Assembly (NCBI GenBank): GCA_964587195.1
Contig: CAZPKN010000003.1
Coordinates: forward strand, 1-61,277
From: an uncultured Gammaproteobacteria bacterium
GTDB taxonomy: Bacteria; Patescibacteriota; Patescibacteriia; Patescibacteriales; UBA12465
Direction of reading: 5' to 3'
DNA: 61,277 nucleotides
The position numbers and the translations under genes are program-made. Under the pieces are notes generated by a model. The model worked only from the letters and a program-made list of their open reading frames with translations, made no database searches and was not told the origin of the DNA. Of the stretch, positions 39,995-59,823 are shown piece by piece. Position 1 is the stretch's first letter. Each line of letters starts with the position of its first letter.

Positions 39995-40032
39995 ACAAGA
40001 GCGGGAACTATGTTTATTTTACAAAGGATAAT

Positions 40033-40993: not shown

Positions 40994-41020
40994 ATATTTT
41001 TATCTAATATTCGTAGTGAC

Positions 41021-41665: not shown

Positions 41666-41726
41666 ACAATTCAAGGAATCAATCCTTCGGGATTGGTTCC
41701 TTTTTTTGTATAGACAATTTAAAGAA

Positions 41727-42578: not shown

Positions 42579-42582
42579 ATAA

Positions 42583-42858: not shown

Positions 42859-42862
42859 ATGT

Positions 42863-44650: not shown

Positions 44651-44804
44651 CTTTTTGGTTCGTTATTTCTCGCCAATTTTTATAAATTTCATCTAGCTTA
44701 AGCCGGTCGTGATAAAGCCTAGGCTCGGTAAAAGATTTATAGAATTGATAATTTAGATAAACGAGAATAACTATTAAAATCACGAGTAAAATATTGGTAA
44801 GCAT
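44640..44804 (-). CDS. 54-aa single-TM protein (not in ORF track)
   Basis: MLTNILLVILIVILVYLNYQFYKSFTEPRLYHDRLKLDEIYKNWREITNQKDEK*; overlaps the pIII start. Confidence 0.6.
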   Translation of the reverse strand: MLTNILLVILIVILVYLNYQFYKSFTEPRLYHDRLKLDEIYKNWREITNQKDEK

Positions 44805-44858
44805 AAAATTATTTTAAGAAGGGAGTTTTCGCCCCGCCGGTTAAAGCGGGGCGATAAA

Positions 44859-45107
44859 CTATTTGATCGTGCCCCTGATTTTCTTTACGCCCCACATAAT
44901 ACCCTTGATAATCAAAGTTAAAGTGATGACGGCGCCGAACACTCCGAGGATATAAGGGATAAACGCATAAGCGTTATCCTTTAATAAATCGGTGGTGCTA
45001 GCTAAAGAATTAGTCAGGTCCGGATCGGCGGCCGCATGAGCGAAATTAGTACTTAAACCAAGTGCGCCTATGAAAGCCATAAATCCGAGTCCAATCTTCT
45101 TAAACAT
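44859..45107 (-). CDS. Major coat protein (pVIII-like)
   Basis: Signal peptide ending AHA, acidic N-terminus, one TM helix, basic tail KKIRGTIK; SD-like GGGGGTG 6 nt before ATG 45107. Confidence 0.85.
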   Translation of the reverse strand: MFKKIGLGFMAFIGALGLSTNFAHAAADPDLTNSLASTTDLLKDNAYAFIPYILGVFGAVITLTLIIKGIMWGVKKIRGTIK

Positions 45108-45130
45108 ATTTTTCACCCCCTTTCTAGTCT

Positions 45131-45232
45131 TTATTTATTTTTGTTAATAAAGAACGGAATAAGAATAAGACCGAGAAATCCAGCCCATAGGCACCATTTT
45201 AATAATTCATTTACTGCTTCAAATTCGGTCAT
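45131..45232 (-). CDS. 33-aa pIX/pVII-like minor coat protein (not in ORF track)
   Basis: MTEFEAVNELLKWCLWAGFLGLILIPFFINKNK*. Confidence 0.7.
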   Translation of the reverse strand: MTEFEAVNELLKWCLWAGFLGLILIPFFINKNK

Positions 45233-45236
45233 ATAA

Positions 45237-45335
45237 TTACAAACTATCTTTTATCTTTTTAAGCCCCCAAATTATCAAAAGGATGATAATTAAAGGCGTG
45301 TAGATCTGAACGAATTCAATGCCATTTATTTCCAT
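45237..45335 (-). CDS. 32-aa pVII/pIX-like minor coat protein (not in ORF track)
   Basis: MEINGIEFVQIYTPLIIILLIIWGLKKIKDSL*. Confidence 0.7.
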   Translation of the reverse strand: MEINGIEFVQIYTPLIIILLIIWGLKKIKDSL

Positions 45336-45493
45336 ATTTTTTTAGCTACATAAATTATGATAATTGCCCCTAAGGCTATTTTTACGAAGAAAAATAAGCC
45401 GGCAATTGGCAATACGAAAGTCGCGCTTAAATTAACAATATTGTCAGCGCTGTCTAAAACTTGGTAATGGAATAAAATTTCATTGAAATTCAT
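45326..45493 (-). CDS. 55-aa single-TM protein (not in ORF track)
   Basis: MNFNEILFHYQVLDSADNIVNLSATFVLPIAGLFFFVKIALGAIIIIYVAKKIWK*; overlaps the next start. Confidence 0.65.
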   Translation of the reverse strand: MNFNEILFHYQVLDSADNIVNLSATFVLPIAGLFFFVKIALGAIIIIYVAKKIWK

Positions 45494-45560
45494 ATAATAA
45501 TTAATTTAGAAATCGGAGCGGACTTACAGGATAAAAATATTTCCTTGCCGCCCCATATTT

Positions 45561-45857
45561 CTATTTCTTATCGTTTTCATTCTCAGACACGTAAATAGAA
45601 AGATAAGCTCTTTGCCTTACCCCATCGACATAGCTAAAAGGGAAGACATTAACCTCAAGCTCTACTTCTGAGCCGACTGCGCCAAAATCTCGGTCCAGTG
45701 GCACATTTACCTTTATTGGGTAAATACTGCCTAATGGGTCGATAAATAATGAGCGGACAACGCCGGGGACTCCGTCTTTACTGACGAAATCTTTTGTTTT
45801 ATCATCTTTGATTTTTCCTTTTAAAATAAACATAGTTTTATTGTTATTTTTATTCAT
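45561..45857 (-). CDS. pV-like ssDNA-binding protein
   Basis: 98-aa beta-rich protein from ATG 45857 (GGGGG upstream), first gene of the structural cassette; assignment mainly positional. Confidence 0.6.
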   Translation of the reverse strand: MNKNNNKTMFILKGKIKDDKTKDFVSKDGVPGVVRSLFIDPLGSIYPIKVNVPLDRDFGAVGSEVELEVNVFPFSYVDGVRQRAYLSIYVSENENDKK

Positions 45858-45951
45858 TGTTCTGCCCCCGACCTTTATCCGGCAGTTTACGCTCATATCA
45901 TAGATAAAGAGGGTTCTGAAAAGTTCCGGTACCATTTTTCAGAACAACAAA

Positions 45952-45977
45952 AAAAGACCTGTTTTACAGGTCTTTTT
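45952..45977. terminator. Bidirectional terminator, copy 1
   Basis: AAAAGACCTGT-TTT-ACAGGTCTTTT. Confidence 0.8.
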
Positions 45978-45997
45978 AGCGATATTTTTTCAGAACT

Positions 45998-46807
45998 TTA
46001 GAGGTATTTTTTGTTTAACTTAACTTTTCCTTTTCTTCCAGTATTGAAAATTAGGAAGTCTTTAATTTTTATAGCATCTTCAATTTTCTTATTAACTTCA
46101 AAGCAAATATTATGATATCTTTTCCAGCGCCTTCTGTTTTCCTTGTATTCATCAAAGTCATCAAACTCATCTTCGGCTATTTCTGAGTAAAAGAAATCAT
46201 CATCTAAATTATCTTTATTATCAATAAAGACATATTTTAGTAATTTATGGGCATTTCCAATTTTATCTTGCTTGCCAATAGACACTTTTTGCGCTTTTAT
46301 CCAGAGAATGCTTCTTTTTGGGTCAAAATAGGTTTTTTTATCATCCTCATCTTCGCTCAAAAAACTCTTTTGGTCTAATTGCTCAAAAATGTTGCTATTT
46401 ATTACCTTAAAAGACAGCTTAAGGGAGTCTTTAGAATAGGGTTTAGAGAAAAGACGGCATAAATCATCAAATTCTTGTTTATCAGCTATATTACAATCCT
46501 TAATCTTTTTCATCCGGCTATATATTATTTTAAGGTTTGAATAATATACCCAAAATTCATTAGTGTGAATAACCTCGCTTTTAACGTTAAGGAATTTATC
46601 CTCATTAAGCTCTTGGCCGGCTTCGCCCATTGCTTTGACGGTGTTATCAAAAATGCCTTGTAAAACCTCTTTAGTGACCGGGTCTTTATCGATGAGAGTA
46701 ATGTATTTATAGACGATAACAAAGCGCTGAAAAATGTTATTTTCTATACAAAAAAGCCTAGTTAATTCCAGCATTTTTTCTTTCACTGCTGAGCAATAGG
46801 CTTTCAT
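45998..46807 (-). CDS. Hypothetical protein with possible C-terminal winged helix
   Basis: 269 aa; the C-terminal YSEIAEDEF...INKK-like helix plus GKVKLNKKYL hairpin pattern suggests a wHTH (inference). Confidence 0.6.
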   Translation of the reverse strand: MKAYCSAVKEKMLELTRLFCIENNIFQRFVIVYKYITLIDKDPVTKEVLQGIFDNTVKAMGEAGQELNEDKFLNVKSEVIHTNEFWVYYSNLKIIYSRMKKIKDCNIADKQEFDDLCRLFSKPYSKDSLKLSFKVINSNIFEQLDQKSFLSEDEDDKKTYFDPKRSILWIKAQKVSIGKQDKIGNAHKLLKYVFIDNKDNLDDDFFYSEIAEDEFDDFDEYKENRRRWKRYHNICFEVNKKIEDAIKIKDFLIFNTGRKGKVKLNKKYL

Positions 46808-46982
46808 ATGATTTCTACTTTTAAAATATTCCCGCCTTTTGAGCAGGGAATATTTGCTATTCTATATAAATTTGTCAATAAGTCATGGTTTTAGGGAAAT
46901 TTTAGATTCATATTATTCTTATTATAAATTAAATTTAGAATCAAAACAAGTTGATAAATATTAGCCTATTTATGGACTTTTC

Positions 46983-47043
46983 AAATATTTACAAAATATT
47001 TACAAAATTAAAAATAATTGTTAAAGTAGAAGTAAAGTTTTAC
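46983..47043 (+). promoter_or_regulatory. Promoter/operator region of the XRE-glycosylation operon
   Basis: AAATATTTACA x2 (11-bp period), TTTACA-N17-TAAAGT with TGn, palindrome GTAAA-GT-TTTAC. Confidence 0.45.
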
Positions 47044-47064
47044 TAGAAAATAGTTAAACAAGAT

Positions 47065-47265
47065 ATGAAATCAAAAATCGGAGAGAATCTAAAAAAGTAT
47101 CGATTAGGTTGCGGTTTGTCACAGGAAGAATTAGCCTCTAAAGCTAATGTAACTTTTCATACTATTTCAAAAATAGAAACAGGTGCGACTAATGACCCAA
47201 GGGCCTTAACTCTTGAGAAGCTAGTTAAAGTTTTAGATATTAAAATTGATGATTTATTAAAATAA
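47065..47265 (+). CDS. XRE-family HTH repressor
   Basis: LKKYRLGCGLSQEELASKANVTFHTISKIETG pattern. Confidence 0.92.
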   Translation: MKSKIGENLKKYRLGCGLSQEELASKANVTFHTISKIETGATNDPRALTLEKLVKVLDIKIDDLLK

Positions 47266-47269
47266 AAAT

Positions 47270-48211
47270 ATGGATAATTTATATTTATCAGTTATTGTTC
47301 CTGTATATAATGAAGAGGGGGCAGCAGCTAATCTTTATCAGGAAATTTTAAATGTTTGCCAAAAAATTAATAAACCATTTGAAATTATTTTTGTTAACGA
47401 TGGTTCAACCGACAAAACTCTTGAAGTCTTAAAAACCCTATCACCGATTAAAATTGTTAATTTACGTGGCAATTTTGGACAAACAGCAGCCATGGATGCT
47501 GGAATTAAAGCCGCTTCCGGCTTCTATTTAGCCACTTTAGACGGTGACGGGCAAAATGATCCAGCTGACATTCCTAATCTAATAGCTGAACTGGAGAAAA
47601 ATGATTTAGATGTAGTTTCTGGTTGGAGAAAGAATAGAAAGGATACTTTTATGAAAAAGCTTTCTTCTAAATGTGCCGCTTATGTTAGAAAGCGCTTAAT
47701 TAACGATGGGATTCATGACTCAGGTTGTTCGCTTAAAGTTTATAAAAAAGAGTGTTTTAAGGGAGTAACGCTTTATGGCGAAATGCATCGTTTTATTCCG
47801 GCTGTTTTAAAAATTAAAGGCTTTAAAATTGGAGAGTTAGTAGTTAATCATCGTTCAAGGAAGACTGGTAGAACAAAATATAATTGGAAACGAGGAATAA
47901 AAGGAATTTTAGATATGTTTTCCGTTTGGTTCTGGAAAAAATATGCTAATCGCCCCCTACATTTATTTGGGGGATGGGGGGTTATATTGATCACGATTTC
48001 ATTTTTTTCTGGACTTTTAGCAATGTATAAAAAAATATTTTCAGGTCAAGATTTATCTGACACGGCTTTAACCGATTTATCAATGTTTGGGTTTTTTGTT
48101 GGCATAATGTTTTTTATTTTTGGTCTTTTAGCTGATATTCTTTCTAAAAACTATTATGCTACTCATAAAGAAGAGGCCTATAGTGTTAAAGAAGTAATTG
48201 ATAATAAGTAA
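47270..48211 (+). CDS. GT2 polyprenyl-phosphate glycosyltransferase (ArnC/DPM-like)
   Basis: VIVPVYNEE, VNDGSTD, LDGDGQNDP, GEMHRFIP motifs; two C-terminal TM helices. Confidence 0.92.
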   Translation: MDNLYLSVIVPVYNEEGAAANLYQEILNVCQKINKPFEIIFVNDGSTDKTLEVLKTLSPIKIVNLRGNFGQTAAMDAGIKAASGFYLATLDGDGQNDPADIPNLIAELEKNDLDVVSGWRKNRKDTFMKKLSSKCAAYVRKRLINDGIHDSGCSLKVYKKECFKGVTLYGEMHRFIPAVLKIKGFKIGELVVNHRSRKTGRTKYNWKRGIKGILDMFSVWFWKKYANRPLHLFGGWGVILITISFFSGLLAMYKKIFSGQDLSDTALTDLSMFGFFVGIMFFIFGLLADILSKNYYATHKEEAYSVKEVIDNK

Positions 48212-48212
48212 T

Positions 48213-49076
48213 ATGAAAAAGAATTTATTAATTGGTTTCATTGGTCAGGGATTCATTGGTAAAAACATGGCAGATGATTTTTCTGATCGTGGATATCAAG
48301 TTGTTCGCTACGATAAAAATCATAACTCCAGCAACAGAGATAAAATAAAAGAATGTGATTTTGTTTTTATAGCCGTACCGACTCCTTCAACCCCGGATGG
48401 TTTTGATGATAGTATTTTACAGGAAGTTCTGGCTTTAGTAGGAGAGGATAAAACTGCCATTATTAAATCAACGATTAAAATTGGCACTACGGAAAAATTA
48501 CAAAAATTATATCCTAACAAATATATTTTACATTCCCCAGAATTTTTGACAGAAAAAAACGCCGCTAATGATACTAAATTTCCCCCTCGAAATGTCATAG
48601 GTTTTACTGAAAAATCTAAAGATAAATCTCAGGATGTTTTAAATCTTTTACCACCAGCACAACATAATTTCATAGTTGAGAGTAAAGAGGCGGAATTAGT
48701 AAAATACATGGGCAATAATTTTTTATTTCTTAAGGTTATTTTTGCTAATTTAATTTATAGTCTAGCTGATAAAAAAGGTGTTGATTATCAAAAAGTTGCA
48801 GAAATTGTTGGCTTTGATCCAAGAATTGGACATAGTCATTTACAGATTAATCATCAAAGCGGTCACAGCAATAAAGCGGGAAGAGGAGCTGGTGGGCATT
48901 GTTTTATTAAAGATATGGCAGCTCTAGTAGAAATGTTTAAAGAAGATGATTTAAATAATAAAGCAGACCACTTGGCGGTCGAGGTTTTAGAAAAAGTGGT
49001 TGATTTTAATAAACAATTATTAATAGATAGCAATAAAGACTTAGATTTATTGCAAGGAGTATATGGAAATGAATAA
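48213..49076 (+). CDS. UDP-glucose/GDP-mannose dehydrogenase family protein, lacking the C-terminal domain
   Basis: GFIGQGFIG, IKSTI, HSPEFL, AELVKY and GAGGHCFIKD motifs; only ~287 aa. Confidence 0.85.
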   Translation: MKKNLLIGFIGQGFIGKNMADDFSDRGYQVVRYDKNHNSSNRDKIKECDFVFIAVPTPSTPDGFDDSILQEVLALVGEDKTAIIKSTIKIGTTEKLQKLYPNKYILHSPEFLTEKNAANDTKFPPRNVIGFTEKSKDKSQDVLNLLPPAQHNFIVESKEAELVKYMGNNFLFLKVIFANLIYSLADKKGVDYQKVAEIVGFDPRIGHSHLQINHQSGHSNKAGRGAGGHCFIKDMAALVEMFKEDDLNNKADHLAVEVLEKVVDFNKQLLIDSNKDLDLLQGVYGNE

Positions 49077-50037
49077 TAAAAAAACAATTTTAGTTACCGG
49101 TTCGGCTGGTTTTATCGGTTTTCACACGGCTAAAAGACTGTTGGAAGACGGCAATATTGTAATTGGTGCCGATAACTTCAACGACTACTATAATCCGAGC
49201 CTTAAGGAGGCTAGAAATGCTATTTTAGAGGGTTTTGAGGGCTATAAGCTATATCGGGGAGACCTTAGTGATGAGAACCTAGTAGAGCAGATTTTTACCG
49301 AAAATAAAATAGATCAAGTTTGCCATTTAGCCGCTCAAGCTGGTGTGCGCTATAGTTTAGAAAATCCTAGAGTTTATATTAAATCAAATATCAATGCTTT
49401 TCTTAATATCTTAGAAGCAGCTAGAAATTATAATATTAAAGATTTAGTCTATGCTTCTTCTAGTTCGGTTTATGGCAGTAATCAGAAAGTACCATTTTCA
49501 GTTAATGACTCAGTAGATAATCCAATTTCTTTATATGCAGCCACTAAAAAAGCCGATGAACTTATGGCTCATACGTACTCTCATTTATTTGATATAAATA
49601 CTACCGGTTTACGCTTTTTTACAGTTTTTGGTCCTTATGGTCGCCCTGATATGGCCCTTTTTTTATTTACCCACGCTATTGCAAATGAAGAAGAAATAAA
49701 AGTCTTTAATTTTGGTAAGATGAAACGAGACTTTACCTATATAGATGATATCGTTGATGGTGTATTATTAGCCCTAGAAAAAACTAATGGCTATCAAATA
49801 TTTAACTTAGGCAATAATAAACCAGTTGAGTTAGAATATTTTATAAGTTGTATAGAGAAAGAAATAGGGAAGAGTGCTAAGAAGAAATATATGGAACTAC
49901 AGCCAGGGGATGTTTTAGAAACATTCGCTGATATTGAACATACTAAAGAAGTATTAGGCTGGGAGCCAAAAACAAGCACCGAAGAAGCAATTAAAGCTTT
50001 TATTGGATGGTACAAAGAATACTATGGAGACAAATAA
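49063..50037 (+). CDS. NAD-dependent epimerase, UDP-glucuronate 4-epimerase-like
   Basis: TGSAGFIG, HLAAQAGVRYSLENP, YAATK and YGRPDMA motifs. Confidence 0.9.
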   Translation: MEMNNKKTILVTGSAGFIGFHTAKRLLEDGNIVIGADNFNDYYNPSLKEARNAILEGFEGYKLYRGDLSDENLVEQIFTENKIDQVCHLAAQAGVRYSLENPRVYIKSNINAFLNILEAARNYNIKDLVYASSSSVYGSNQKVPFSVNDSVDNPISLYAATKKADELMAHTYSHLFDINTTGLRFFTVFGPYGRPDMALFLFTHAIANEEEIKVFNFGKMKRDFTYIDDIVDGVLLALEKTNGYQIFNLGNNKPVELEYFISCIEKEIGKSAKKKYMELQPGDVLETFADIEHTKEVLGWEPKTSTEEAIKAFIGWYKEYYGDK

Positions 50038-51151
50038 GAAAAAAAGAATCTTAGTTTTAAATTACGAATTTCCGCCTTTGGGAGGAGGGGCAAGTCCGGT
50101 GAGCTACGAAATTGCAGAGCGTCTGTCAGAAACGGGTGATTTTGATATTGATGTGGTGACTATGGGCTATAAAGATTTACCAAAATATGAAGAAATAAAT
50201 AGTAATTTTAGAATACATAGAGTTAAATGTTTAAGAAATAAAAAAGAGATTTGTCATCCTTGGGAGCAGGCTAGTTATCTATTAAGTGGATATTTTAAAT
50301 GCAAACAATTATTAAAGAAAAGCAAATACGATATTTGTCATTGTCACTTTATTATTCCGACAGGAGTATTAGCAATAAAACTAAAAAATAAATTTGATTT
50401 ACCTTATATTATTACTAGTCATGGGAGCGATGTCTTGGGATATAATGCTAGATTTAAATTATTATATCCTTTTTTAGTAAAAACTTGGAAAAATATTTTA
50501 GATAATGCTAATAAAATAATATCTCCATCTAATTTTCTTAAGACAGAAATATTAAAAGTTTACCCACAATTTAATAATGAAAAAATAGAAGTGATTCCTA
50601 ACGGTTTTGATACTAGTAAATTTAAGCCACAAGAAAAGAAAAAATATATTTTTTCATCTGGCAGATTATTGGTTAACAAAGGTTTTCAATACTTAATTCA
50701 GGCAGTTTCTGATTTTAATATTGATTACGAGGTCCATATTGCTGGTGACGGACCAATGAGGGCAGAGCTACAAAAGTTAGCAGAAAAATCAAAGACAAAA
50801 ATAATTTTTCATGGCTGGCTTGATAATAACGGCCAAGAGTACAAAAATTTATTAGAGCAAGCCGCAATATACGTTTTAGCTTCAGAGAAAGAAAATGCTA
50901 GTATAGCTTTACTAGAAGCTATGAGTGCTGGTTGCACAGTAATCACAACAAATGTATCTGGATGCCCAGAAACAGTTGGAAATGCTGGATTATTAATAAA
51001 TCCTAGATATGCTAATGATTTAAAAATAAAATTGAATACCATTGTTAATGATGAAAATAAGTTAATTGAACTGCAGAAAAAAGCACAAGATAGAGTAAAA
51101 AATATTTACGACTGGAATATTGTTTTAAAAGAATTTATAAAAGTATTATGA
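50024..51151 (+). CDS. GT4 glycosyltransferase
   Basis: EFPPLGGGA, SHGSD, GDGP and ALLEAMSAG motifs. Confidence 0.9.
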   Translation: METNKKKRILVLNYEFPPLGGGASPVSYEIAERLSETGDFDIDVVTMGYKDLPKYEEINSNFRIHRVKCLRNKKEICHPWEQASYLLSGYFKCKQLLKKSKYDICHCHFIIPTGVLAIKLKNKFDLPYIITSHGSDVLGYNARFKLLYPFLVKTWKNILDNANKIISPSNFLKTEILKVYPQFNNEKIEVIPNGFDTSKFKPQEKKKYIFSSGRLLVNKGFQYLIQAVSDFNIDYEVHIAGDGPMRAELQKLAEKSKTKIIFHGWLDNNGQEYKNLLEQAAIYVLASEKENASIALLEAMSAGCTVITTNVSGCPETVGNAGLLINPRYANDLKIKLNTIVNDENKLIELQKKAQDRVKNIYDWNIVLKEFIKVL

Positions 51152-52245
51152 GCAAAGAAATAAAAATTTTACATATAATAGATTCCCTTGGACTTGGTGG
51201 CGCCCAAACTATTGTTAAAGGTATTTTTGAATATCAATTAAATAACCAAAATATATTTTTATTTGCATTAAGAAATAGAAATATTTTAATAGAAGTTAAG
51301 CACACTAATGTTCAGATCTTTAATTCATCTAAAAAATATTCTTTTAGACCTCTTTTTGCGTTAAAAGATCTAATTAAACGTGAAGAAATTACAATTTTAC
51401 ATTGCCATCTTTTTAAATCTCAGATTTTTGGCTTTCTTTTAAAAAAAATATGGTTTAAGAATGTGAAATTAATATTTCATGAACATGGTGAGATATTCCA
51501 AGGTTATATCACGTATAATTTATTTATGAGAGATGTCAAAAGTACTATAAATAAAATTATTGCCGTATCTAATGCCACAAAAGAAAAATTAATAGCTAAG
51601 GCCGGCATAGAAGAAAATAAGATAACCGTTTTATCAAATTTTGTTGATTTAAATAAATTTAATAGGAAAAATATTACTTGGAATATGGAAGGGGAAAGAG
51701 AAAAATTAGGTATTAAAAAGGGTGAATATGTAATAGGTTTTGTTGGCAGACTTGCAAAAGTTAAGGGTTGTGAGTATTTGTTGAAAGCGCTACCTTATTT
51801 AAACTTTTCCTATAAGGTTTTAATTGCTGGTGATGGCCCAGAAAGAAAAAAGCTTGAAAAATTGGCAGTAGAATTAAAAATTACTGAAAGAATTATATTT
51901 TTAGGTTATAGAAGTGATACGGTCTTTATTTATTCCTTGTTAGATGTTTTAATTATGCCCTCTTTGAGCGAGTCTTTCGGTTTGTCTGTTATTGAAGCAC
52001 AGTCTATGGGCACTCCAGTTATATCGTCTAATATTCCTGCATTAAATGAAATTATTATTAATAACGAAAACGGCTTGATGTTTGAGGTTAAAAAATCTCT
52101 AGATCTTTCTCTGAAGATAGAGCTGATGTATAAGGATGAAAAAGCTAGAAATAGGTTTACAAAAAATGGATTAGAAAGTGTCAAAAAGTATGATTTAGAA
52201 AATTATATTAATAATTTGAATAAAATTTATGAAGATATTAAATAA
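51148..52245 (+). CDS. GT4 glycosyltransferase
   Basis: LGLGGAQ, VGRL, GYRSD and ESFGLSVIEA motifs. Confidence 0.92.
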   Translation: MSKEIKILHIIDSLGLGGAQTIVKGIFEYQLNNQNIFLFALRNRNILIEVKHTNVQIFNSSKKYSFRPLFALKDLIKREEITILHCHLFKSQIFGFLLKKIWFKNVKLIFHEHGEIFQGYITYNLFMRDVKSTINKIIAVSNATKEKLIAKAGIEENKITVLSNFVDLNKFNRKNITWNMEGEREKLGIKKGEYVIGFVGRLAKVKGCEYLLKALPYLNFSYKVLIAGDGPERKKLEKLAVELKITERIIFLGYRSDTVFIYSLLDVLIMPSLSESFGLSVIEAQSMGTPVISSNIPALNEIIINNENGLMFEVKKSLDLSLKIELMYKDEKARNRFTKNGLESVKKYDLENYINNLNKIYEDIK

Positions 52246-53050
52246 TATTAAACATAATCAGATACAACACGACAAATTAGCTTCAACTTATAATATTAAA
52301 CATTCCGAAATTTATAATATATACGAACAAAGTAGGTTAAAAAAAAGTATAGATTTTTGTATCAAATCTGTAAATTCTAATTCTTCAGTAAAGGTTTTAG
52401 ATTTTGGCGCTGGAACTGGAAATCTTTCCCATATATTTCTGGAAAAAGGTTGCACTGTTACTGCCTGTGATGTATCGCAAAAGTCTCTAAATATTCTAAA
52501 AGATAAATTGCCTTCTAATAATCTTGATACTGTTTTATACAACGGTCTTAAATTGCCGTTTGAGGATAATACTTTTGATATTACTGCAACGTATTCAGTT
52601 TTACATCATATACCTAATTATATAAGTGCCGTAAAGGAAATGATTAGAGTCACAAAGAAAGGTGGATTGATTTGTATTGATCATGAAGCAAATGAAAATA
52701 AATGGAATCCATCAATTGAATTAATAGAGTATAATAATTTAACTAAACAAACTATATTTGAACATATTACAAAATTATTAATTGCCAAGGAATTATTAAC
52801 CTTTGATTTTATTAAAACTGTTTTTATCAAATTTTTTATAAATAAAAAATATCAAAGAGAAGGTGATATTCATGTTTGGAGGGATGATCATGTAGAATGG
52901 AAAAAGGTTAATGAGCTTATTAAAAAAGAAAAATGTGAGATTTTTAAGGAAGAAGATTATTTAATGTATAAACCCAAGGGAGGATTAGAAATATATGAAA
53001 AATATAGTAAGTTAACAAATGATACTAAATTAATTGTAATAAAGAAATGA
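52229..53050 (+). CDS. Class I SAM-dependent methyltransferase
   Basis: VLDFGAGTG, LPFEDNTFD and SVLHH motifs. Confidence 0.9.
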   Translation: MKILNNIKHNQIQHDKLASTYNIKHSEIYNIYEQSRLKKSIDFCIKSVNSNSSVKVLDFGAGTGNLSHIFLEKGCTVTACDVSQKSLNILKDKLPSNNLDTVLYNGLKLPFEDNTFDITATYSVLHHIPNYISAVKEMIRVTKKGGLICIDHEANENKWNPSIELIEYNNLTKQTIFEHITKLLIAKELLTFDFIKTVFIKFFINKKYQREGDIHVWRDDHVEWKKVNELIKKEKCEIFKEEDYLMYKPKGGLEIYEKYSKLTNDTKLIVIKK

Positions 53051-53988
53051 AAAAAATAATTATTACTTTAACTAAAACAATAATAGCAATATCGCTATTA
53101 GGATATTTGTTTTCACTAGTTGATTGGGATACTTTTTTAAGTGCAATTAAAAATGCTAATATTTTTTATATTTTAGTTTCTGCCTTTATGGCATATTTTG
53201 GTATTTATATTAGTATATTAAAATGGAGTATTTTTTTAAAAAATTATGGAATTGTTATTTCTAAATTAAAACTTTATTCTATTTATTCAATAAGCGCTTT
53301 TTTTAATAATTTTTTACCAACTACTGTAGGAGGTGATTTTTATAGAATTATTAGTTTAAATAAACAAATTCCAGTCAAGAAGAAAGAAATTATTTCATCT
53401 ATTATTTTAGAAAGAGGATTTGGTTTTTTGTCTTTATTCCCAATTAACTTTTTATTAGCACCTTTTTATTATAAATTTTTATTAAATAAGAGCTTTCTAT
53501 TAATTCAGGTGCTTATTGTAATAGGTTTTATTTCAATAATTTTTTTAATTTTTAAATATAATTTACTAATTAGATTAAAAAATAAACTAATAAAAAAAGA
53601 ATTTATTATATTAAACAAATTTCATAGCTTAGTTATTTCTATTTCAAATATAAAGAGTAAAAAAACGTTGATATACGGATTCTTGAACTCAATTGTTTTT
53701 TGTTTGACTATTGCTACTGCGAGATATATTTTATTTTTAGCATTCAATATTCAAGTAGATTTTTTTTATATATTGCTAGTTAGTTCTATAGCGCAAATTA
53801 TAGGAATACTTCCAATATCTCTTAACTCAATAGGTGTAAATGAAGGATTGAGCGTTTTTTTATTCAGTCTCGTTGGCGTTCCTATAGAAATATCTTTAGT
53901 TGTCGCATTAGTTGGAAGAGTATCTCTAATAGCGACTAGTTCTCTGGGGGGATTATTTTATTTTTTTGATAATAAAATTAAATTTTAA
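53047..53988 (+). CDS. Flippase-like membrane protein (LPG synthase TM / UPF0104 family)
   Basis: FFNNFLPTTVGGD and LPISLNSIGVNE motifs; multi-TM. Confidence 0.85.
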   Translation: MKKIIITLTKTIIAISLLGYLFSLVDWDTFLSAIKNANIFYILVSAFMAYFGIYISILKWSIFLKNYGIVISKLKLYSIYSISAFFNNFLPTTVGGDFYRIISLNKQIPVKKKEIISSIILERGFGFLSLFPINFLLAPFYYKFLLNKSFLLIQVLIVIGFISIIFLIFKYNLLIRLKNKLIKKEFIILNKFHSLVISISNIKSKKTLIYGFLNSIVFCLTIATARYILFLAFNIQVDFFYILLVSSIAQIIGILPISLNSIGVNEGLSVFLFSLVGVPIEISLVVALVGRVSLIATSSLGGLFYFFDNKIKF

Positions 53989-53999
53989 AAAATATTTGC

Positions 54000-56180
54000 T
54001 TAATTTAACCTTATTAACGTTAAAATAGGGTAAATATTTAATTTAGATTTTTGGTCATTAAATAAATTTTTCTTTGGATAAAATTGTTGAACTATTTCTC
54101 CATTTTCAATTATACTTCTTAGAACAGGATTAGAGTCTTTATGTTTATAGGAGTCATAGGTCAAAATAGCATATACATTTTTTTCTTTTAATAAAATATT
54201 GTCAAGATGATCATCATTCATTATGACAGGAGATCCGGTATAAATATCCCAATCTTGATTCTCTTCTATTATATATTTATTGTTATTCCATGCTATATAG
54301 TTCTTAAAAAAATCAATCTGATCTTCAGTGTAATTGTATTTTGGGTATTGAAAAGATCCATTAGAACTAATAATCTCTGTGTCCCTTAGATGATATTTAG
54401 CCTTATAAATTCTAGAAAAATTAAATAGTTTGCCAACCAAAGGATATTCTATAATAACCGTGCTTTCTTTAGGTATATATGCTACTAAATTATTCCACGG
54501 AACCGATGCTTCTATGGTCCACCCAAGATAGCCAGTTTTCATTAAATTTAAGTTATATAAATTGCTAATAATAAATACTATGAATATAAAATAAAATATT
54601 ATTTTAGATACTTGAAGTCTAACGAAATAAAAGCCATAAGCCATAATCGCTACCAACATAAAACTAATGGGAAATAGATATCTTACGTCAAGTATGTTTT
54701 TACCAAAAACGTAACCCAATAAAATTATTAAACCGACAATCCACGCCAATAATATTTTTAAAAATTTATCTTTTTTAAATAAATTAATAATTGTTATTAG
54801 TATAATAATTATTAATCCAATATTTTTTTGATAATAAAAAATGTTTATAATATTTTGCAGATGATTACTTAATTTAAATGTGATATTTCTTATAATAAAA
54901 TTATAAATTGAATTATCATAAAATATTATGTAAACTAGAAATAGAGATAGTATTAACAACAATGAAATAGTAATATAAAAAACATTTTTTCGGTCTCTAA
55001 TTAGTTTATTGAATACTAGCATTGAATAAAGAAGTATTAACGAGAAGAGTCCAATATTGTGTCCAATAAAGATATTTGAGAAAGTTATTAATAGAAACAG
55101 TAAAGAGCTGATTAAAAAATCCTTCAAATTATTAGATTCGTATATTTTTTTACCTATTAAAATGCCCGTTATTAGGATGATTGCAGAAATAACATATTCT
55201 CTCGCTATCATGGAATATAATATAAAATACCAATTAAGCCCAAATAAAAAAACCCCTAACAATGCTATTTTTTTTAGTTTAAATATATTTTTTATCAATA
55301 TATATATTAAAAAGGATAGTAATATTTTTAGTACTACATTAAAAAATCTTAATTGATAAAAAATATCATCAAAAATTCTATAAAAAAAAGACTCTATCAA
55401 TGAATATACTATATTTCGATTATATGCTATTCCCGTACTTGTTTCGCCATAAAATTTCTGGTGATCTATAATATTTGAAACAGATAAATTCGTGTAGGCC
55501 TCATCTATATGGAATGGTACTTTATTTATAAAATATAGAGTTAAAATTGAAGACATTATTATAATAATGAGTAACAAAAAACTATAAATCACGCCTTCCT
55601 TGTAAAAAAAACATACCATTTTTTTTATAATAGGAATCTTATTTATCCTTGGAAACTTATCGGCAAATTCAGTTTTTCTTTTATCCTCAGCTATTTGTTC
55701 AGTTATTTGTTCTCGGTCTATCTCTTTTTCCACCCTCTCTCTATTATGCCAAAAAGTTAAGCCACCACTTAAAATCGCTAGTACTGTTATAATAACTTGA
55801 TATTTATTTATCCAAGCTAAATCAATAAACTTTTCTAAATAACTAAATTGCCCCAGCGCTATTATCAGCAAAAGAAAAAGAAAAAGATAGGAAATAATAT
55901 CCCACCTTTTTTCAACAATGAAATTTAAAACATTAATTAATATCTTTTTTGTCTGACCGTGAAATGGCCATTTGATATTTAGAATAAAACCTTTTATTTT
56001 TATAATTATGTCCCTCTCAAAGTTAACAAAATAAAATATCGCTAGAAATATAGCTAGGGAATTAGTAATTACCGTAAAAGCATCTTGTATATTTTGGCCA
56101 ATATTAAATAGACAAAAAATAGCTACTATTAATAATAATATTGATATTCCGTATTGTTTTATAACTCTTATCATAATCAT
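54000..56180 (-). CDS. GT-C fold glycosyltransferase (ArnT/PMT-like) with extra N-terminal TM region
   Basis: FHIDEAY, FGLNWYFILYSMIAREY and RYLFP motifs; start coupled to the upstream stop (TAATG). Confidence 0.8.
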   Translation of the reverse strand: MIMIRVIKQYGISILLLIVAIFCLFNIGQNIQDAFTVITNSLAIFLAIFYFVNFERDIIIKIKGFILNIKWPFHGQTKKILINVLNFIVEKRWDIISYLFLFLLLIIALGQFSYLEKFIDLAWINKYQVIITVLAILSGGLTFWHNRERVEKEIDREQITEQIAEDKRKTEFADKFPRINKIPIIKKMVCFFYKEGVIYSFLLLIIIIMSSILTLYFINKVPFHIDEAYTNLSVSNIIDHQKFYGETSTGIAYNRNIVYSLIESFFYRIFDDIFYQLRFFNVVLKILLSFLIYILIKNIFKLKKIALLGVFLFGLNWYFILYSMIAREYVISAIILITGILIGKKIYESNNLKDFLISSLLFLLITFSNIFIGHNIGLFSLILLYSMLVFNKLIRDRKNVFYITISLLLILSLFLVYIIFYDNSIYNFIIRNITFKLSNHLQNIINIFYYQKNIGLIIIILITIINLFKKDKFLKILLAWIVGLIILLGYVFGKNILDVRYLFPISFMLVAIMAYGFYFVRLQVSKIIFYFIFIVFIISNLYNLNLMKTGYLGWTIEASVPWNNLVAYIPKESTVIIEYPLVGKLFNFSRIYKAKYHLRDTEIISSNGSFQYPKYNYTEDQIDFFKNYIAWNNNKYIIEENQDWDIYTGSPVIMNDDHLDNILLKEKNVYAILTYDSYKHKDSNPVLRSIIENGEIVQQFYPKKNLFNDQKSKLNIYPILTLIRLN

Positions 56181-57664
56181 TAAAAAGCAAATACCCAAAT
56201 AGGATCTTGTTGCCCGGTTTTATTATAAAAAATTAATTTTTGTTGATTAATTAAATCATTAATCTCTCTATCTAACCTAATTCCAGTCATATTGTCAACT
56301 ATAATATAGCCAGTCTTTGTTTCTGTTAACTCTTTTAACTGCTCCGCAGTTTTAATAGTAATAGCATTATTATAATATTCTCTTTCGGCCAACTTGCTTT
56401 TATTTAATTTGCGTCCATCTAAGCCAATTGCTAGCCAATAATCACTTCTGCCTAAATAGACTTTATCAAGTTGTGTAAAAGCAGAAACAATTACCTTATC
56501 TTCGCTCCAACCCTGATCTGCAATCGCTTGATAGGCACTTTTGAAATCTGGTTGAGGAGTATGAGGCTCTAAGTAATAATAAGTAATCGGTTTTAAAACA
56601 AAAGTATTGGTCTGTAAATAATTAGAAGCAGTAATTACTAAGATTAAAATACCTAAACCAAGTAGCCAGGAATATTTAAATTTTTTGCTTACTATATTAA
56701 TTACATAAGCTGTTAGGATAAATAGGATGGGTAGGATGAAAAATAAATAACGAAAATGTAAAGTATCAGCGCTAAAAGTTATTATTAAATAGGGAAGTAA
56801 ATAAGCAACAATTAGACCAATTTTGGTTTTTATGTTTTTTTCTTTTAAAACTATAATAACTGTCCCCGCTAAAGCCATAACTACAATTAGGGGTAAATAA
56901 TCAATTAGAAAATTCTGATAATTATGACCAATAAAAAAATTATTAGTGCTAGCTTTTCTAAAAAAGTCTAAAAATAATTTAACTAATAGAGAGATTATTC
57001 CTAAGCCGCTTAAAGCAATTACTATTAATTTGTTTTTGTCTTGAATTATTTTTCGCAACTCTTCTTTTTTAGTATTAAATAAATTAATGAGTAGTATAAG
57101 GGCATAAATACCAATTAATAAATAACCAAAATAATGGCTTAAAATAGCCGCTAAGGTAACTAGTACCAATAAGACTAGTTTTTTATAGGAAAATTTATTG
57201 AGCAGGGAATTAAAAAGGTAGAGAGCGAGAAGAAAGAAGAACTGTAGTTGGATATACATTCTCGCCTGCCTGCTCCAGGCTATTTCCCAATAAGATAAAG
57301 TGGTTAAAATAGCGGCGAAGAAGCCTACTTGTTTATTAAAATATTGACGCCCTAAGAAATAAATCATTAATATAACCCCGATTCCAAAAATGACTGCCGG
57401 TAATCTTGTGGCTATTGGATTAAAACCGCCTAGCTTAACCGCCCCAGTAATTAAATAATTATTAAGAAGATAATGAGGTCCATAAATTTTGTCTGAGTCA
57501 AGTATGGGGTAGCCTTTTTCTAGAGTGCTCAACACTGCATTTAAGGTATAGCCTTCGTCTATCCAGTAAGACTGTTGGTCAATTTTATAGAATCGCAAAA
57601 ACAAACCATAAATAATAATTATAGAAAAAAAAGAAAATATTAAAATTTTATGATATTTTTGCAT
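56180..57664 (-). CDS. GT-C fold glycosyltransferase (ArnT/PMT-like)
   Basis: SYWIDEGYT, RLPAVIFG, SRQARMY and RYLFF motifs; ~11 TM segments. Confidence 0.85.
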   Translation of the reverse strand: MQKYHKILIFSFFSIIIIYGLFLRFYKIDQQSYWIDEGYTLNAVLSTLEKGYPILDSDKIYGPHYLLNNYLITGAVKLGGFNPIATRLPAVIFGIGVILMIYFLGRQYFNKQVGFFAAILTTLSYWEIAWSRQARMYIQLQFFFLLALYLFNSLLNKFSYKKLVLLVLVTLAAILSHYFGYLLIGIYALILLINLFNTKKEELRKIIQDKNKLIVIALSGLGIISLLVKLFLDFFRKASTNNFFIGHNYQNFLIDYLPLIVVMALAGTVIIVLKEKNIKTKIGLIVAYLLPYLIITFSADTLHFRYLFFILPILFILTAYVINIVSKKFKYSWLLGLGILILVITASNYLQTNTFVLKPITYYYLEPHTPQPDFKSAYQAIADQGWSEDKVIVSAFTQLDKVYLGRSDYWLAIGLDGRKLNKSKLAEREYYNNAITIKTAEQLKELTETKTGYIIVDNMTGIRLDREINDLINQQKLIFYNKTGQQDPIWVFAF

Positions 57665-57871
57665 GTGGATAACTTTTTACTTATTAATATTTTATCATAT
57701 TTTTAGCCAAAATATAAGGGTATTTTAAATAATTTAAAAAATATGAAAAATAACCTTGTTTTTTATCATTTATAGTATTATAATAAATATATTAAATAGT
57801 AAATAGAGCTAATTTAATTTTGCTGTATTTGCTGCAAAAATTTTAAAATATTTTATAATTAATTTGAGTCT

Positions 57872-59467
57872 ATGAAAAAGTTTAAAAACTACTTTTCCAA
57901 AATCTTCAAAACTAAAGCGGTATTAGCAATGTTGATTATTGGTCTCGCCATCTCTCCGACGGTTTTTGCTCAGTTTGCTCGTCAAACTGGAGGTCCCGAT
58001 TGGGGCTATGGTTACGGTTACGGTTACGGCTATGGCTACGGCTTTGACGGTGGCACTATTGCTGGTTATCGTACAACGGGAGCTGCATCTTCAACTTATG
58101 CTTATGGCTACGGCTATGGTTATAAAGCTGATGGTGTGACATATGATGCAAGTAATGGGTTTGAAGTTACGCCAGCTACTATGAGTAGTTTGGTCCAAGC
58201 AGGTATTATGATTCCTAGCGGATCAAACCCTTCTAATACTAGTGCAATTACTTTCGCGCAACAAGTCGCTCTTGCACCAGTAACTGGAGTTTCTGTTGTT
58301 ATTCCGCAAGGGGTTGTTATGACATCCAATTCTGGAAATTTTGATATGGCTGATTTAGCAGCTGGGGCAGCGAGTTTAACCGGCTTATCTACTGATGTTG
58401 ATCTTGCTGGTTCGCTTTCGTTTGGTGTGCCTAGTGTAGGGTTAACACTTAATCCAGCTATTCAAATTTCTATCGCAGTTGATTCTGCTTTAGAAGGTAA
58501 AACATTAAAAATTTACAGAAAGGATGCCGGCGGTTCATGGGTTGAAAGTCCTTCCGGAACAGATGCAACTTGTACTGTAACTAGTGGTGTTTGTACTTTT
58601 AGTACTACTCATCTATCATCTTTTGGTGCCGGTGATGTTTATACTTGGAATTATGGATCATATGGGTCTTGTAGCGTTTCTTGTGGTGGAGGAACACAAA
58701 CCAGAACTGCTACTTGTAAAAATTCTAGCGCTGAAACCGTAGCTAACTCTTTCTGTTCTGGAACAGCAGTAACATCTCAATCTTGCAATACTCAAGCTTG
58801 TAGCTCTGGCGGAGGAGGAGGCGCAATTGTTAATAATTGTAGCTCTGTCGTTTATGCAGATTGGGGTTCTTGTGTTAATGGTTTTCAATTTAGATCAGTT
58901 TTAAGTCAAACTCCAGCTGGTTGTTCATTAACTGCTCAACAGCAAATAGATTCTTCTAGAGCCTGTGTCTTAGGCGAAGAGCCTATCGTTGTTACCCCTC
59001 CAGTTGTTACTCCAGGTAGTTCTGAAGCTAGAGCTGATGTAAAACAAGTGATGAATAATGAAAGATCATTAGTTTCTAAGATTAATACCGCTCTAACTAA
59101 TCGCTTAGCTGGTCGTATTTTGCTTCAGGTTGAAGAAAAAGGACAAGCTTGGTATATTGAGCCAGTTAGTAAGCAAAAACATTTCATGGGACGTCCAGCT
59201 GACGCCTTTGATATGATGCGTCGCTTTGGTCTTGGTATTAGTGAAGCTAATTTTTCTAAGTTCGAAAAATCAGGCGTTCCAGCTCGTTTTGCTGGTCGCA
59301 TATTCTTAAGAGTTAAAAGCAAAGGTGAAGCCTACTATATTAATCCAGTTGATATGAAAATGCATTACTTAGGTCGTCCAGCTGATGCCTTTAACTTAAT
59401 GAGAAGTAAAGCTTTGGGAATTTCTAACGCAAATATCAGACAAATCCCAGTGGGTGAAGTTAAATAA
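57872..59467 (+). CDS. Secreted surface protein with (GY)n tracts, a TSP1 repeat and a duplicated C-terminal domain
   Basis: Signal peptide; WGYGYGYGYGYGYG; WNYGSYGSCSVSCGGGTQTRTATC; two copies of (RL/RF)AGRI(L/F)L.V..KG.A(W/Y)YI.PV. Confidence 0.85.
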   Translation: MKKFKNYFSKIFKTKAVLAMLIIGLAISPTVFAQFARQTGGPDWGYGYGYGYGYGYGFDGGTIAGYRTTGAASSTYAYGYGYGYKADGVTYDASNGFEVTPATMSSLVQAGIMIPSGSNPSNTSAITFAQQVALAPVTGVSVVIPQGVVMTSNSGNFDMADLAAGAASLTGLSTDVDLAGSLSFGVPSVGLTLNPAIQISIAVDSALEGKTLKIYRKDAGGSWVESPSGTDATCTVTSGVCTFSTTHLSSFGAGDVYTWNYGSYGSCSVSCGGGTQTRTATCKNSSAETVANSFCSGTAVTSQSCNTQACSSGGGGGAIVNNCSSVVYADWGSCVNGFQFRSVLSQTPAGCSLTAQQQIDSSRACVLGEEPIVVTPPVVTPGSSEARADVKQVMNNERSLVSKINTALTNRLAGRILLQVEEKGQAWYIEPVSKQKHFMGRPADAFDMMRRFGLGISEANFSKFEKSGVPARFAGRIFLRVKSKGEAYYINPVDMKMHYLGRPADAFNLMRSKALGISNANIRQIPVGEVK

Positions 59468-59491
59468 TCTAGTTATAAAATAGAATATTAC

Positions 59492-59518
59492 AAAAGACCT
59501 GTGTTTACAGGTCTTTTT
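59492..59518. terminator. Bidirectional terminator, copy 2
   Basis: AAAAGACCTGT-GTTT-ACAGGTCTTTT, differing from 45952-45976 by one loop base. Confidence 0.8.
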
Positions 59519-59579
59519 GTATATTAGAGTGTAGTTAAAAATATTATTATAATAGTGTTTAGGATTGAGGCCTTATATT

Positions 59580-59628
59580 TTAACTATTATTAGCCACACT
59601 AGTTCGAACTTTGTCCACGACCCCGAGC
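59580..59628 (-). other. Inferred attR P-arm encoding the alternative recombinase C-terminus
   Basis: Minus strand reads LGVVDKVRTSVANNS* in frame from the shared GAGC; contains GTTCGAA. Confidence 0.6.
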
Positions 59629-59667
59629 TAATAAAAAAATGGCTAATTTTAGCCATTTTTTTATTAG
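59628..59667. terminator. Long A/T-rich hairpin, probable original tRNA terminator (B' arm)
   Basis: CTAATAAAAAAATGGCTA-ATTT-TAGCCATTTTTTTATTAG, perfect 18-bp stem. Confidence 0.65.
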
Positions 59668-59670
59668 TTT

Positions 59671-59823
59671 GTGGGTAAGAATGAGAACCCTCGGGTTCGC
59701 ACTGCCGAGGATAGCGAGGAATCGCCAGCCTGCCTGCCGGTAGGCGGGCTTGCTGGCAGTTCCGAGCGGCGCAGGCAGAATAGGGCGGCTTTGCCGCCCT
59801 ATAATCCCACCCCGGGAGCCAAC
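59671..59823 (+). repeat. tRNA-Asn 3' fragment with a T loop interrupted by GC-rich hairpins
   Basis: GTGGGT / GGGTTCG ... AATCCCACCCCGGGAGCCAAC; includes the 20-nt palindromic unit at 59729-59748. Confidence 0.7.

Follow-up and report, generated by a model that had tools for sequence, protein, structure and literature searches.

The window, by which we mean the whole 61,277-base stretch of DNA analysed, contains an integrated filamentous-phage-like element in a tRNA-Asn gene (Table 1). One co-oriented block includes a Zot/pI ATPase, a Rep of the rolling-circle type and a short coat protein that has both a signal peptide and a transmembrane segment, the gene set by which inoviruses (Tubulavirales) are recognized. 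The 85-aa coat-like protein matches PHROG 1109, and the structural block is conserved in relatives. Pfam and PHROG searches gave no family hits for the 269-aa, pV-position, pIII-like and 726-aa proteins; the 90-aa protein may, from its position only, have a ssDNA-binding role. In size the element (21,578 bp) falls outside the range of about 5-12 kb of known inoviruses. Cultured inoviruses measure 5.5-10.6 kb, and relatives of the element that carry defence cargo are about 16-17.5 kb long. No sign of an episome was found in the source-sample assemblies, in which the depth of the element equals that of the host.

Table 1. Features of the integrated element and its flanks, in window coordinates
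Feature	Position	Strand	Description and evidence
tRNA-Asn (GTT)	37978..38052	+	Integration target; ARAGORN and Rfam; crossover at or next to GAGC, 38047-38050
Whole inovirus-like element	38051..59628		21,578 bp, integrated in tRNA-Asn
Large serine integrase	38011..39645	-	Pfam Resolvase, Recombinase, Zn_ribbon_recom; PHROG 95 at 3e-75
Rolling-circle replication initiator	40033..40821	-	PF23343 REP_ORF2-G2P; PHROGs 3584, 3419
Zot/pI-like morphogenesis ATPase	41727..42578	-	PF05707; PHROGs 197, 1675
Structural block	42583..45116	-	91-aa membrane protein, 595-aa pIII-like protein, 54-aa ORF, 85-aa major-coat-like protein
90-aa pV-position protein	45561..45833	-	Gene order and conservation
Three GTTCTGAAAA motifs	45913..45996		Two direct, one inverted, flanking hairpin 1; operator-like
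Hairpin 1	45952-45976	-	AAAAGACCTGT-TTT-ACAGGTCTTTT; predicted intrinsic terminator of the 269-aa gene; conserved core
269-aa conserved core gene	45998..46807	-	In 12/12 relatives covering the slot, 35-94% identity; no Pfam or PHROG hit
Variable cargo	46963..57664		HTH gene and glycosylation cluster; Pfam, homology breakpoints; GC 28%
531-aa secreted surface protein	57872..59467	+	GYGY repeats, TSP1 domain; last cargo gene
Hairpin 2	59492-59517	+	AAAAGACCTGT-GTTT-ACAGGTCTTTT; predicted bidirectional intrinsic terminator after the 531-aa gene
Right arm (attP left arm)	59580..59628	-	Encodes LGVVDKVRTSVANNS and a stop, the integrase C-terminus when excised; mimics a tRNA 3' end
Native terminator of host tRNA-Asn	59632..59665	+	Hairpin; adjoins the tRNA 3' end in the unitig with the empty site; displaced by the insertion
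21-nt copy of tRNA-Asn 3' end	59803..59823	+	In host DNA beyond the element; may be the scar of an older integration

The ends of the element were established from an empty site, AATCCCACCCCGG/GAGCTAATAAAAAAATGGC, present in a unitig of run X4 (from another sample), where position 38046 is joined directly to 59625. Contigs of X4 and of a second run, X22, stop at 59628. The preliminary description had placed the right end of the element at 59628, which the X4 empty site and the contig ends in both runs bear out; the empty tRNA-Asn site also confirms its proposal that the 13.5-kb block upstream of that end lies within one integrated element. The left junction, attL, reads ...CCCCGGGAGC/CAACGTAG and the right junction, attR, ...CCCCGAGC/TAATAAAA; attB was read from the X4 unitig, and a contig of the relative L041 supplied the attP form. 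The short core common to attL, attR and attB, resolved short of the exact crossover dinucleotide, is typical of a large serine recombinase, as are the integrase domains PF00239, PF07508 and PF13408. In the prophage form the last integrase codons run antisense through the tRNA gene, which is all that an Rfam scan of the window found. Several tRNA genes serve as integration sites within the family: Asn, Gln, Trp and Ser.

The 21-nt copy of the tRNA-Asn 3' end at 59803-59823 was considered as the right att site and dropped, since the empty-site unitig and the conserved arm put the end at 59628. Tandem elements were likewise rejected, no internal att copy having been found in the element. A 12-nt inverted match links 38103-38114 with 59842-53, of a kind that chance alone would produce about 17 times in 24 kb.

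The glycosylation cluster of the variable cargo encodes a GT2, UDP-glucose dehydrogenase, an epimerase, two GT4 enzymes, a methyltransferase, LPG_synthase_TM, the 726-aa membrane protein and PMT_2. Among the approximately 20 related elements compared, only L022 and L042 share this cargo, and cargo-swapped relatives, with restriction-modification or defence genes replacing the cluster, are abundant. Against relatives that carry other cargo, homology extends some 1 kb beyond hairpin 1 and is lost at 46934-47061, not at 45976. The cargo would be swapped in a slot reaching from the promoter region of the 269-aa gene (~46.96 kb) to a point at or before the arm (~59.57 kb), and not at the hairpins. 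A junction in L026 was evaluated as a serine-integrase excision of the core from an island and rejected; it shows only 1-2 nt of microhomology, its arms are asymmetric and the last ~34 integrase codons are kept. We read it as an illegitimate deletion.

The glycosylation block could also be taken for host chromosome, with the real prophage confined to the 8-9-kb core. Its genes are typical Patescibacteria envelope genes with a GC content of 28%, and a homologous module occurs in a locus without phage genes. In the empty-site unitig, however, the 3' end of tRNA-Asn is followed at once by the sequence from 59625 on; the cargo travels with the phage core both in L022, at tRNA-Gln, and in L042, where the right end abuts a different flank; and the cargo has a conserved arm on its right. 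The empty site and the presence of the cargo at another tRNA refute this reading, to which we attach almost no probability.

Each hairpin lies shortly after a stop codon, hairpin 1 at 21 nt from that of the 269-aa gene and hairpin 2 at 24 nt from that of the 531-aa gene. The slot of hairpin 1 is kept in nine relatives (L015, L018/L027, L022, L023, L024, L025, L026, L030 and L042), and its position is unchanged whichever cargo they carry. Because the 269-aa gene occurs in all 12 relatives covering the slot, with homology continuing past hairpin 1, the gene belongs to the core. The GTTCTGAAAA motif has three matches, against 0.25 expected, all within 45913-45996, and the motifs co-vary in L027 and L030. 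Hairpin 1, in the regulatory region that immediately precedes the structural operon, would stop transcription of the 269-aa gene.

Hairpin 2 has orthologs in L040, L041, L042 and L043. In the first three of these, the C-terminal part of the surface protein, the hairpin and the arm occur together, but L040 and L041 have different genes upstream. L043, which contains no phage genes, has the surface gene and hairpin 2 (70-77% identity) beside SIMPL and DUF5652 genes, without the arm. The occurrence of hairpin 2 with the surface gene in other contexts, including L043, indicates that it was not created when the present cargo was gained. The arm is conserved in L025, L027, L040, L041 and L042, and its translation is the integrase tail; at the right ends of L025 and L027, which have other cargo, the arm is present and the hairpin absent.

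Since the arm is the integrase tail in the excised form, hairpin 2 lies there between two convergent genes, 62 nt from the integrase stop codon. The attP-form contig of L041, which could also be a tandem junction, has the order surface gene, hairpin 2, arm, with the integrase convergent. On the excised circle the surface gene faces the integrase gene head-on, the final 16 codons of the latter lying within the arm, and the A-tract, stem and T-tract of hairpin 2 may stop both convergent transcripts. In the prophage, hairpin 2 would insulate the host DNA; we infer this insulation, as we do termination activity for both hairpins.

The hairpins are the two strongest terminator-like sites in the region scanned (42-61 kb). 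Their folding energies are -14.6 to -16.8 kcal/mol (z -4.8 to -7.0), with stems of 11-12 bp, counting A/T pairs, and T-runs of 4-7, as expected of intrinsic terminators. Judged by loop and flanks, the copies are in direct orientation. The sequence matches just twice in the 61,277 bases and not at all in 100 shuffles, a test that exaggerates the significance of the match. The A-run and T-run are part of any bidirectional terminator, and the specific shared part is therefore the 7-bp stem GACCTGT. In most relatives the stem of hairpin 1 is GGCCTGT, so that the usual match to hairpin 2 is 6/7. A survey of 395 kb of related DNA gave 19 hairpins of this kind and 12 distinct stems; no other of these stems recurs, and pure chance is thus an unlikely source of the shared stem.

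The substitutions seen in relatives are informative about what the hairpins do. In the common hairpin 1 variant, GGCCTGT/ACAGGTC, a G.U pair forms only in RNA read in the sense of the 269-aa gene; in hairpin 2 of L040, GACCTGT/ACGGGTC, a U.G pair likewise forms only in RNA read in the sense of the surface gene. On the opposite strand either would be an A.C mismatch; the independent changes are few. Wobble pairing in the sense RNA alone points to hairpins that evolve as RNA terminators and not as DNA recombination sites. We consider it highly probable that the hairpins are separate Rho-independent terminators of two modules in one integrated filamentous-phage-like element, the cargo of which is exchanged elsewhere. 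The likeness of the two stems would then be old or coincidental and not the product of a duplication when the present cargo was gained. Chance is not a comfortable answer for identical 7-bp stems, and this counts against our explanation.

In the preliminary description, the 13.5-kb block was inferred to be a cassette gained with duplication of the hairpin that bounds it, or one that can be lost or exchanged there, by recombination between the direct copies, so that forms of 8 kb and 21.6 kb might coexist. Several of its observations agree with ours. The hairpins are where it placed them and differ by one loop base, with no third copy in the window, and the remaining terminator-like hairpins in the window do have unrelated stems. 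A common terminator family, which it had named, together with a lack of cargo-free or cargo-swapped relatives, as the finding that would overturn its model, does not account for the pair: a count in IMG/VR gave four loci, one a relative and three in unrelated phages, and the hairpin is thus not repeated across the family, nor is it a common terminator. The block is indeed mobile, exchangeable cargo in an element that ends at 59628, and the direct copies share about 25-31 nt, which is close to the minimum length for homologous recombination.

The cassette itself, however, did not survive the comparison, and we think it very improbable. The hairpins are not its junctions, since the left breakpoints of all cargo-swapped relatives cluster at ~46.96 kb and not at hairpin 1, hairpin 2 is missing from the right ends of L025 and L027, and a loss between the hairpins would delete the 269-aa gene, universal in the family. 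The calculated 7.9 kb for 38051-45962 is right, but the "minimal" phage of 8 kb would be without this core gene. Nor was the cargo gained by hairpin duplication: hairpin 2 is older than the present cargo, being found with the surface gene beside other upstream genes and in the phage-free L043. No cargo-free or single-hairpin form was seen among 43 loci, IMG/VR and the contigs of eight runs, which can miss rare variants; in IMG/VR the attP junction, the arm and the joint predicted for a deletion each gave 0 hits. The predicted coverage step between 38-46 kb and 46-59.5 kb is absent from the source-sample contigs, where depth is flat (core 5.9-6.8, cargo 6.8-7.5, host 6.4-8.5), and no single hairpin joins the pV-position gene to the att arm, as two genome sizes would have it, in contigs, fetched loci or IMG/VR. 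The runs found to contain the sequence were all of DNA and none of RNA, and the read evidence consists of their Logan contigs and unitigs; these drop rare variants, so a deletion between the hairpins at low frequency could still occur.

A different role for the matching stems is suggested by the homology between the window and L043, which ends 12 nt past hairpin 2 and so puts this hairpin at one junction of a captured segment. Near-identical terminators of the phage and of a chromosomal surface gene could have served as a short homology for template switching or illegitimate recombination, grafting the surface module onto the right end of the phage; their similarity would then be the cause of the capture and not its result. 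Recombination hot spots are known at hairpins of single-stranded replication intermediates. Against such a capture, neither flank of hairpin 1 contributes phage sequence beside hairpin 2, and the spacer at 59530-59570 is neither L043-like nor common to L025 or L027. The scheme explains one junction at most; at other cargo junctions there is no hairpin. We regard both the guided recombination and the grafting that it implies as unlikely. Equally doubtful is the broader proposal that the matching hairpins are a substrate for rare recombination, through a rolling-circle template switch or short homology, that at times deletes or grafts what lies between them. If this were true, terminator hairpins would be where the phage family gains and sheds host genes, and the surface-protein module at the right end would have been captured through such a hairpin.

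Under our preferred explanation of two separate terminators the hairpin pair is itself ordinary, and the main value of the result is that a false lead is stopped, look-alike terminators not being cassette ends. The surrounding element is of more interest, as a member of a family of filamentous-phage-like prophages of Patescibacteria with several tRNA targets, an integrase gene lying across attP and one fixed slot for either defence genes or the 12.6-kb glycosylation cargo. Packaging of the 21.6-kb form, if it occurs, would make this an inovirus of unusual size, able to alter the surface of an ultra-small bacterium by lysogenic conversion.

The hairpins have the features of known bidirectional Rho-independent terminators: a G+C-containing stem-loop with an A-run and a T-run, a place directly after stop codons, one of them between convergent genes in the excised form, and changes compatible with wobble pairing in the sense RNA. 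Nothing essential differs, the one oddity being that the terminators of unrelated genes share a 7-bp stem. Roux et al. (2019, PMC6813254) report inoviruses from the Candidate Phyla Radiation as well as serine recombinases. With integrative filamentous phages such as CTXphi, which carries ctxAB, and the Pf4 type, the element shares Rep, coat proteins, the Zot/pI ATPase, an integrase and variable genes by the att site. It differs from them in a large serine recombinase that targets tRNA genes and whose ORF crosses attP, in a Patescibacteria host, and in its 12.6 kb of cargo and total of 21.6 kb, far above the sizes of cultured inoviruses.

Integron cassettes, with their attC hairpins, also have hairpin-forming palindromes near the ends of an exchangeable block. 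Here, in contrast, presence/absence breakpoints fall away from the hairpins, an IntI-type integrase is missing, hairpins do not accompany the other cargo sets, and the substitutions agree with pairing in RNA and not in DNA. SSV1-type integrase genes contain attP, and as in those the attP site lies inside the integrase ORF and integration alters the 3' end of the gene; only the last 16-17 codons are exchanged here, so that the gene remains unsplit, and the enzyme is a serine and not a tyrosine recombinase. A parallel to the cargo slot is offered by the defence-system hot spots of P2/P4-like phages and satellites, reportedly described by Rousset and coworkers in 2022. There too, conserved genes flank a fixed slot whose restriction-modification or defence set varies from one relative to the next. 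In the present case the slot belongs to an inovirus-like element, and in this lineage it is filled by a surface-glycosylation cluster instead of defence genes.

The two hairpins of the integrated inovirus-like element are predicted terminators of two modules, not the boundaries of a cargo cassette. The preliminary description had proposed such a cassette, 13.5 kb long, together with an 8-kb minimal inovirus lacking it. Its exchangeable cargo and its placement of the att arm stand; the hairpin boundaries and the minimal form are not supported.

The window is contig NODE_477 of a bioreactor-sludge metagenome (ENA assembly ERZ724080), and loci related to it carry Patescibacteria MAG labels. A co-oriented housekeeping block with sigma-70 and DnaG genes (1-37.6 kb) precedes tRNA-Asn, after which a minus-strand inovirus-type core encodes a large serine integrase, a rolling-circle Rep (PF23343), a Zot/pI ATPase, pVI-, pIII- and pVIII-like proteins, and a pV-position protein. 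Beyond the core lie hairpin 1, a gene for a 269-aa protein, and a divergent HTH gene heading a glycosylation cluster (GT2, UDP-glucose dehydrogenase, epimerase, two GT4, methyltransferase, LPG_synthase_TM protein, 726-aa membrane protein, and PMT_2). The block ends with a gene for a 531-aa secreted GYGY/TSP1 protein, followed by hairpin 2. The GC content falls from 39.7% in host DNA to 35% in the core and 28% in the glycosylation block; the last 2 kb have 37%. The 98-aa ORF on the strand opposite to the phage core is kept in relatives (62-100% amino acid identity); it resembles the ArdC N-terminal domain weakly, at E 0.005, which does not reach the Pfam cut-off. The host gene bordering the element on the right shows weak similarity to NACHT and AAA_16 and may encode a STAND-type defence NTPase.

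Coordinates of features in and around the element
Feature	Position	Strand	Remark
GC-rich palindrome	37700-37735		upstream of GIY-YIG ORF
GIY-YIG ORF	37745-37987		
tRNA-Asn	37978-38052		
Element	38051-59628		21,578 bp
98-aa ORF	41369-41665	+	opposite phage core
pV-position gene	45561-45833	-	
GTTCTGAAAA motifs	45913-45996		two direct, one inverted
Hairpin 1	45952-45976		25 nt
269-aa gene	45998-46807	-	
531-aa surface-protein gene	57872-59467	+	
Hairpin 2	59492-59517		26 nt
Arm	59580-59628		
Copy of tRNA-Asn 3' end	59803-59823		exact, 21 nt
Host gene	60025-61275		cut by window end

The hairpins are indeed a near-identical pair, differing only by an extra G in the loop of one, and no third match to the pattern occurs in the window. 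They rank as the top two terminator-like sites in 42-61 kb and fold strongly in either orientation; as previously described, the remaining terminator-type hairpins in the window have stems unrelated to the GACCTGT pair. Since any bidirectional terminator has an A-run and a T-run, what the two specifically share is this 7-bp stem. The common variant of hairpin 1 forms a G.U pair solely in the sense RNA of the 269-aa gene, and the variant of hairpin 2 in the related locus L040 forms a U.G pair solely in the sense RNA of the surface-protein gene; each would leave an A.C mismatch on the opposite strand. These variants are consistent with putative RNA terminators on opposite strands, not with paired DNA recombination sites. 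The three GTTCTGAAAA motifs around hairpin 1 are absent from the rest of the window, and in the distant relatives L027 and L030 every copy switches jointly to GTTAAGAAA / GTTTAGAAA. This covariation suggests a putative operator region, and the motifs look like candidate operators of an immunity region.

About 20 related elements were fetched for comparison. In L015, L018/L027, L022, L023, L024, L025, L026, L030 and L042, hairpin 1 is found at the equivalent position, usually as GGCCTGT-AAA-ACAGGTC; the more distant L006/L012 (and probably L017) have another terminator there. Homology between the window and its relatives extends beyond hairpin 1 and the 269-aa gene and ends at 46934-47061, which argues against the hairpins as cassette boundaries. 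The proposed minimal inovirus would moreover be without the 269-aa gene, which is kept in all 12 relatives covering its slot.

Past this breakpoint the relatives carry other genes, in agreement with exchangeable cargo within an integrated inovirus-like element: methyltransferases, an HNH protein and a ParB/DUF262-like protein in L015 (identified by eye from sequences), a DpnII-like restriction-modification set in L018/L027, LexA-like and C5-methyltransferase genes in L012 and L017, a mixed 8.4-kb set in L025, and type III restriction-modification, HATPase and a ThsB-like TIR in L026. Only L022 (at tRNA-Gln) and L042 (whose right end adjoins a different flank) share parts of the glycosylation cargo, the middle part being swapped in each. 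Contig Ga0265297_10000007 (881,714 bp, near-complete Patescibacteria) contains two of the related prophages, L015 at tRNA-Asn and L017 at tRNA-Ser, each with separate restriction-modification cargo.

Hairpin 2 belongs to a different recurring unit, consisting of the surface protein's C-terminal 40%, the hairpin, a spacer and the arm (identity 94% in L040, 89% in L041, 92% in L042), upstream of which the N-terminal parts and neighbouring genes differ. In L043, a surface gene homologous over its full length (60% amino acid identity), a hairpin with the same stem and a different loop, and PMT_2 (70%) adjoin SIMPL and DUF5652 genes; neither an arm nor any phage gene is present there, and homology to the window stops at 59529. 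Given its recurrence in L040-L042 and the phage-free L043, hairpin 2 is the surface-protein gene's own putative terminator, and as judged from the compared sequences it predates the present glycosylation cargo and is independent of it. L025 and L027 lack a hairpin at their right ends, where the conserved arm directly follows unrelated genes. The stretch 57650-59628, with the surface-protein gene, hairpin 2 and the arm, is about 99.7% identical in sequencing runs X4, X22 and X23, where the neighbouring PMT_2 is only 91-95% identical, suggesting recent exchange of the right-end module between element variants.

The shared hairpin is rare: IMG/VR has it at four loci, one relative and three unrelated phages. 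Related DNA totalling 395 kb contains 19 comparable hairpins with 12 distinct stems, of which none besides the shared one recurs. In most relatives the hairpin 1 and hairpin 2 lineages, both old, differ at one stem position, so the exact identity in the window is partly lineage-specific. In X4, a 113-nt unitig over 45950-45979 contains this hairpin with a TGG insertion in the loop; its surroundings are unrelated and GC-rich, with tRNA-like sequences on either side. Independent origins of the stem-loop as a putative terminator thus do occur. The match between the two stems may reflect an ancient copy, convergence, or hairpin-guided capture, none of which would restore the cassette model.

The second genome size suggested along with the cassette does not show up in the assembled contigs, the fetched loci or IMG/VR. 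In the source sample each hairpin is spanned by single contigs, and depth is even across core (5.9-6.8), cargo (6.8-7.5) and host (6.4-8.5), without the predicted coverage step. No hairpin-hairpin joint or loose end with the expected flank occurs in eight runs, as represented by assembled contigs, from which rare variants drop out; nor do any of the fetched loci or IMG/VR contain the predicted joint. The sole size variant found goes in the opposite direction, with the core lost and the cargo kept. This is L026 (at tRNA-Gln), from which the entire 7.76-kb phage core is gone, integrase to pV (equivalent to 38115-45874); the 269-aa gene, hairpin 1 and defence cargo are retained, and the junction (10925-10995, equivalent to 45875 joined to 38114) has only 1-2 nt of microhomology.

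The element ends are defined by an empty site, a 52-nt unitig in the unrelated wastewater run X4 (AATCCCACCCCGG+GAGCTAATAAAAAAATGGC) in which the tRNA-Asn 3' end is fused to window 59625 onward, by contigs of X4 and X22 that end at 59628, the arm end given in the preliminary description, and by many contigs sharing only 59590-59628 with different flanks on both sides. The element thus has the extent given in the table, and it contains no internal att copy. Translated on the minus strand, the arm reads LGVVDKVRTSVANNS and then stop. In L041, a relative in the attP form, the order is 531-like gene, hairpin 2, spacer, arm, CCCCGAGCCA, terminator, and the serine integrase ORF, convergent on this stretch, runs through the arm with a tail of exactly LGVVDKVRTSVANNS. 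The arm thus forms the 3' end of the integrase gene when the element is excised. Hairpin 2 then lies, in the circle, 24 nt past one stop codon and 62 nt ahead of the convergent one. The integrase ORF crosses attP (window 59580-59628 and 38011-38112; L041 1440-1500), ending within the arm in …WLGVVDKVRTSVANNS when excised and, in the prophage, antisense through tRNA-Asn in …WLPGWDSNPRPIG, each followed by a stop.

The arm resembles the T-arm and acceptor 3' end of a tRNA. Close relatives (integrase 52-99% identical in amino acids) are found in different tRNA genes: tRNA-Trp (L007/L014), tRNA-Gln (L008, L022, L024, L025, L026), tRNA-Asn (L015) and tRNA-Ser (L017, L028). Targets of this kind are unusual for large serine integrases. 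The window element has a tRNA-Gln-like arm (CCCCGAGC), yet its site is tRNA-Asn (CCCCGGGAGC). The 21-nt repeat of the tRNA-Asn 3' end, in host DNA 175 nt beyond the element, may be left over from an older integration; GC-rich palindromes ahead of it, within 59631-59823, resemble the one upstream of the GIY-YIG ORF. Window 59635-59752 has two sequence variants in the source sample. L040 has two arm copies (2270-2303 and 3264-3308), 1 kb apart on either side of a peroxiredoxin (AhpC) gene, a layout that may reflect tandem elements or a remnant.

Existing catalogues already include inoviruses from the Candidate Phyla Radiation, as well as ones with serine recombinases (Roux et al. 2019, PMC6813254). 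The element described here is unusual in its size (21.6 kb), in its glycosylation cargo and in having an integrase ORF across attP.
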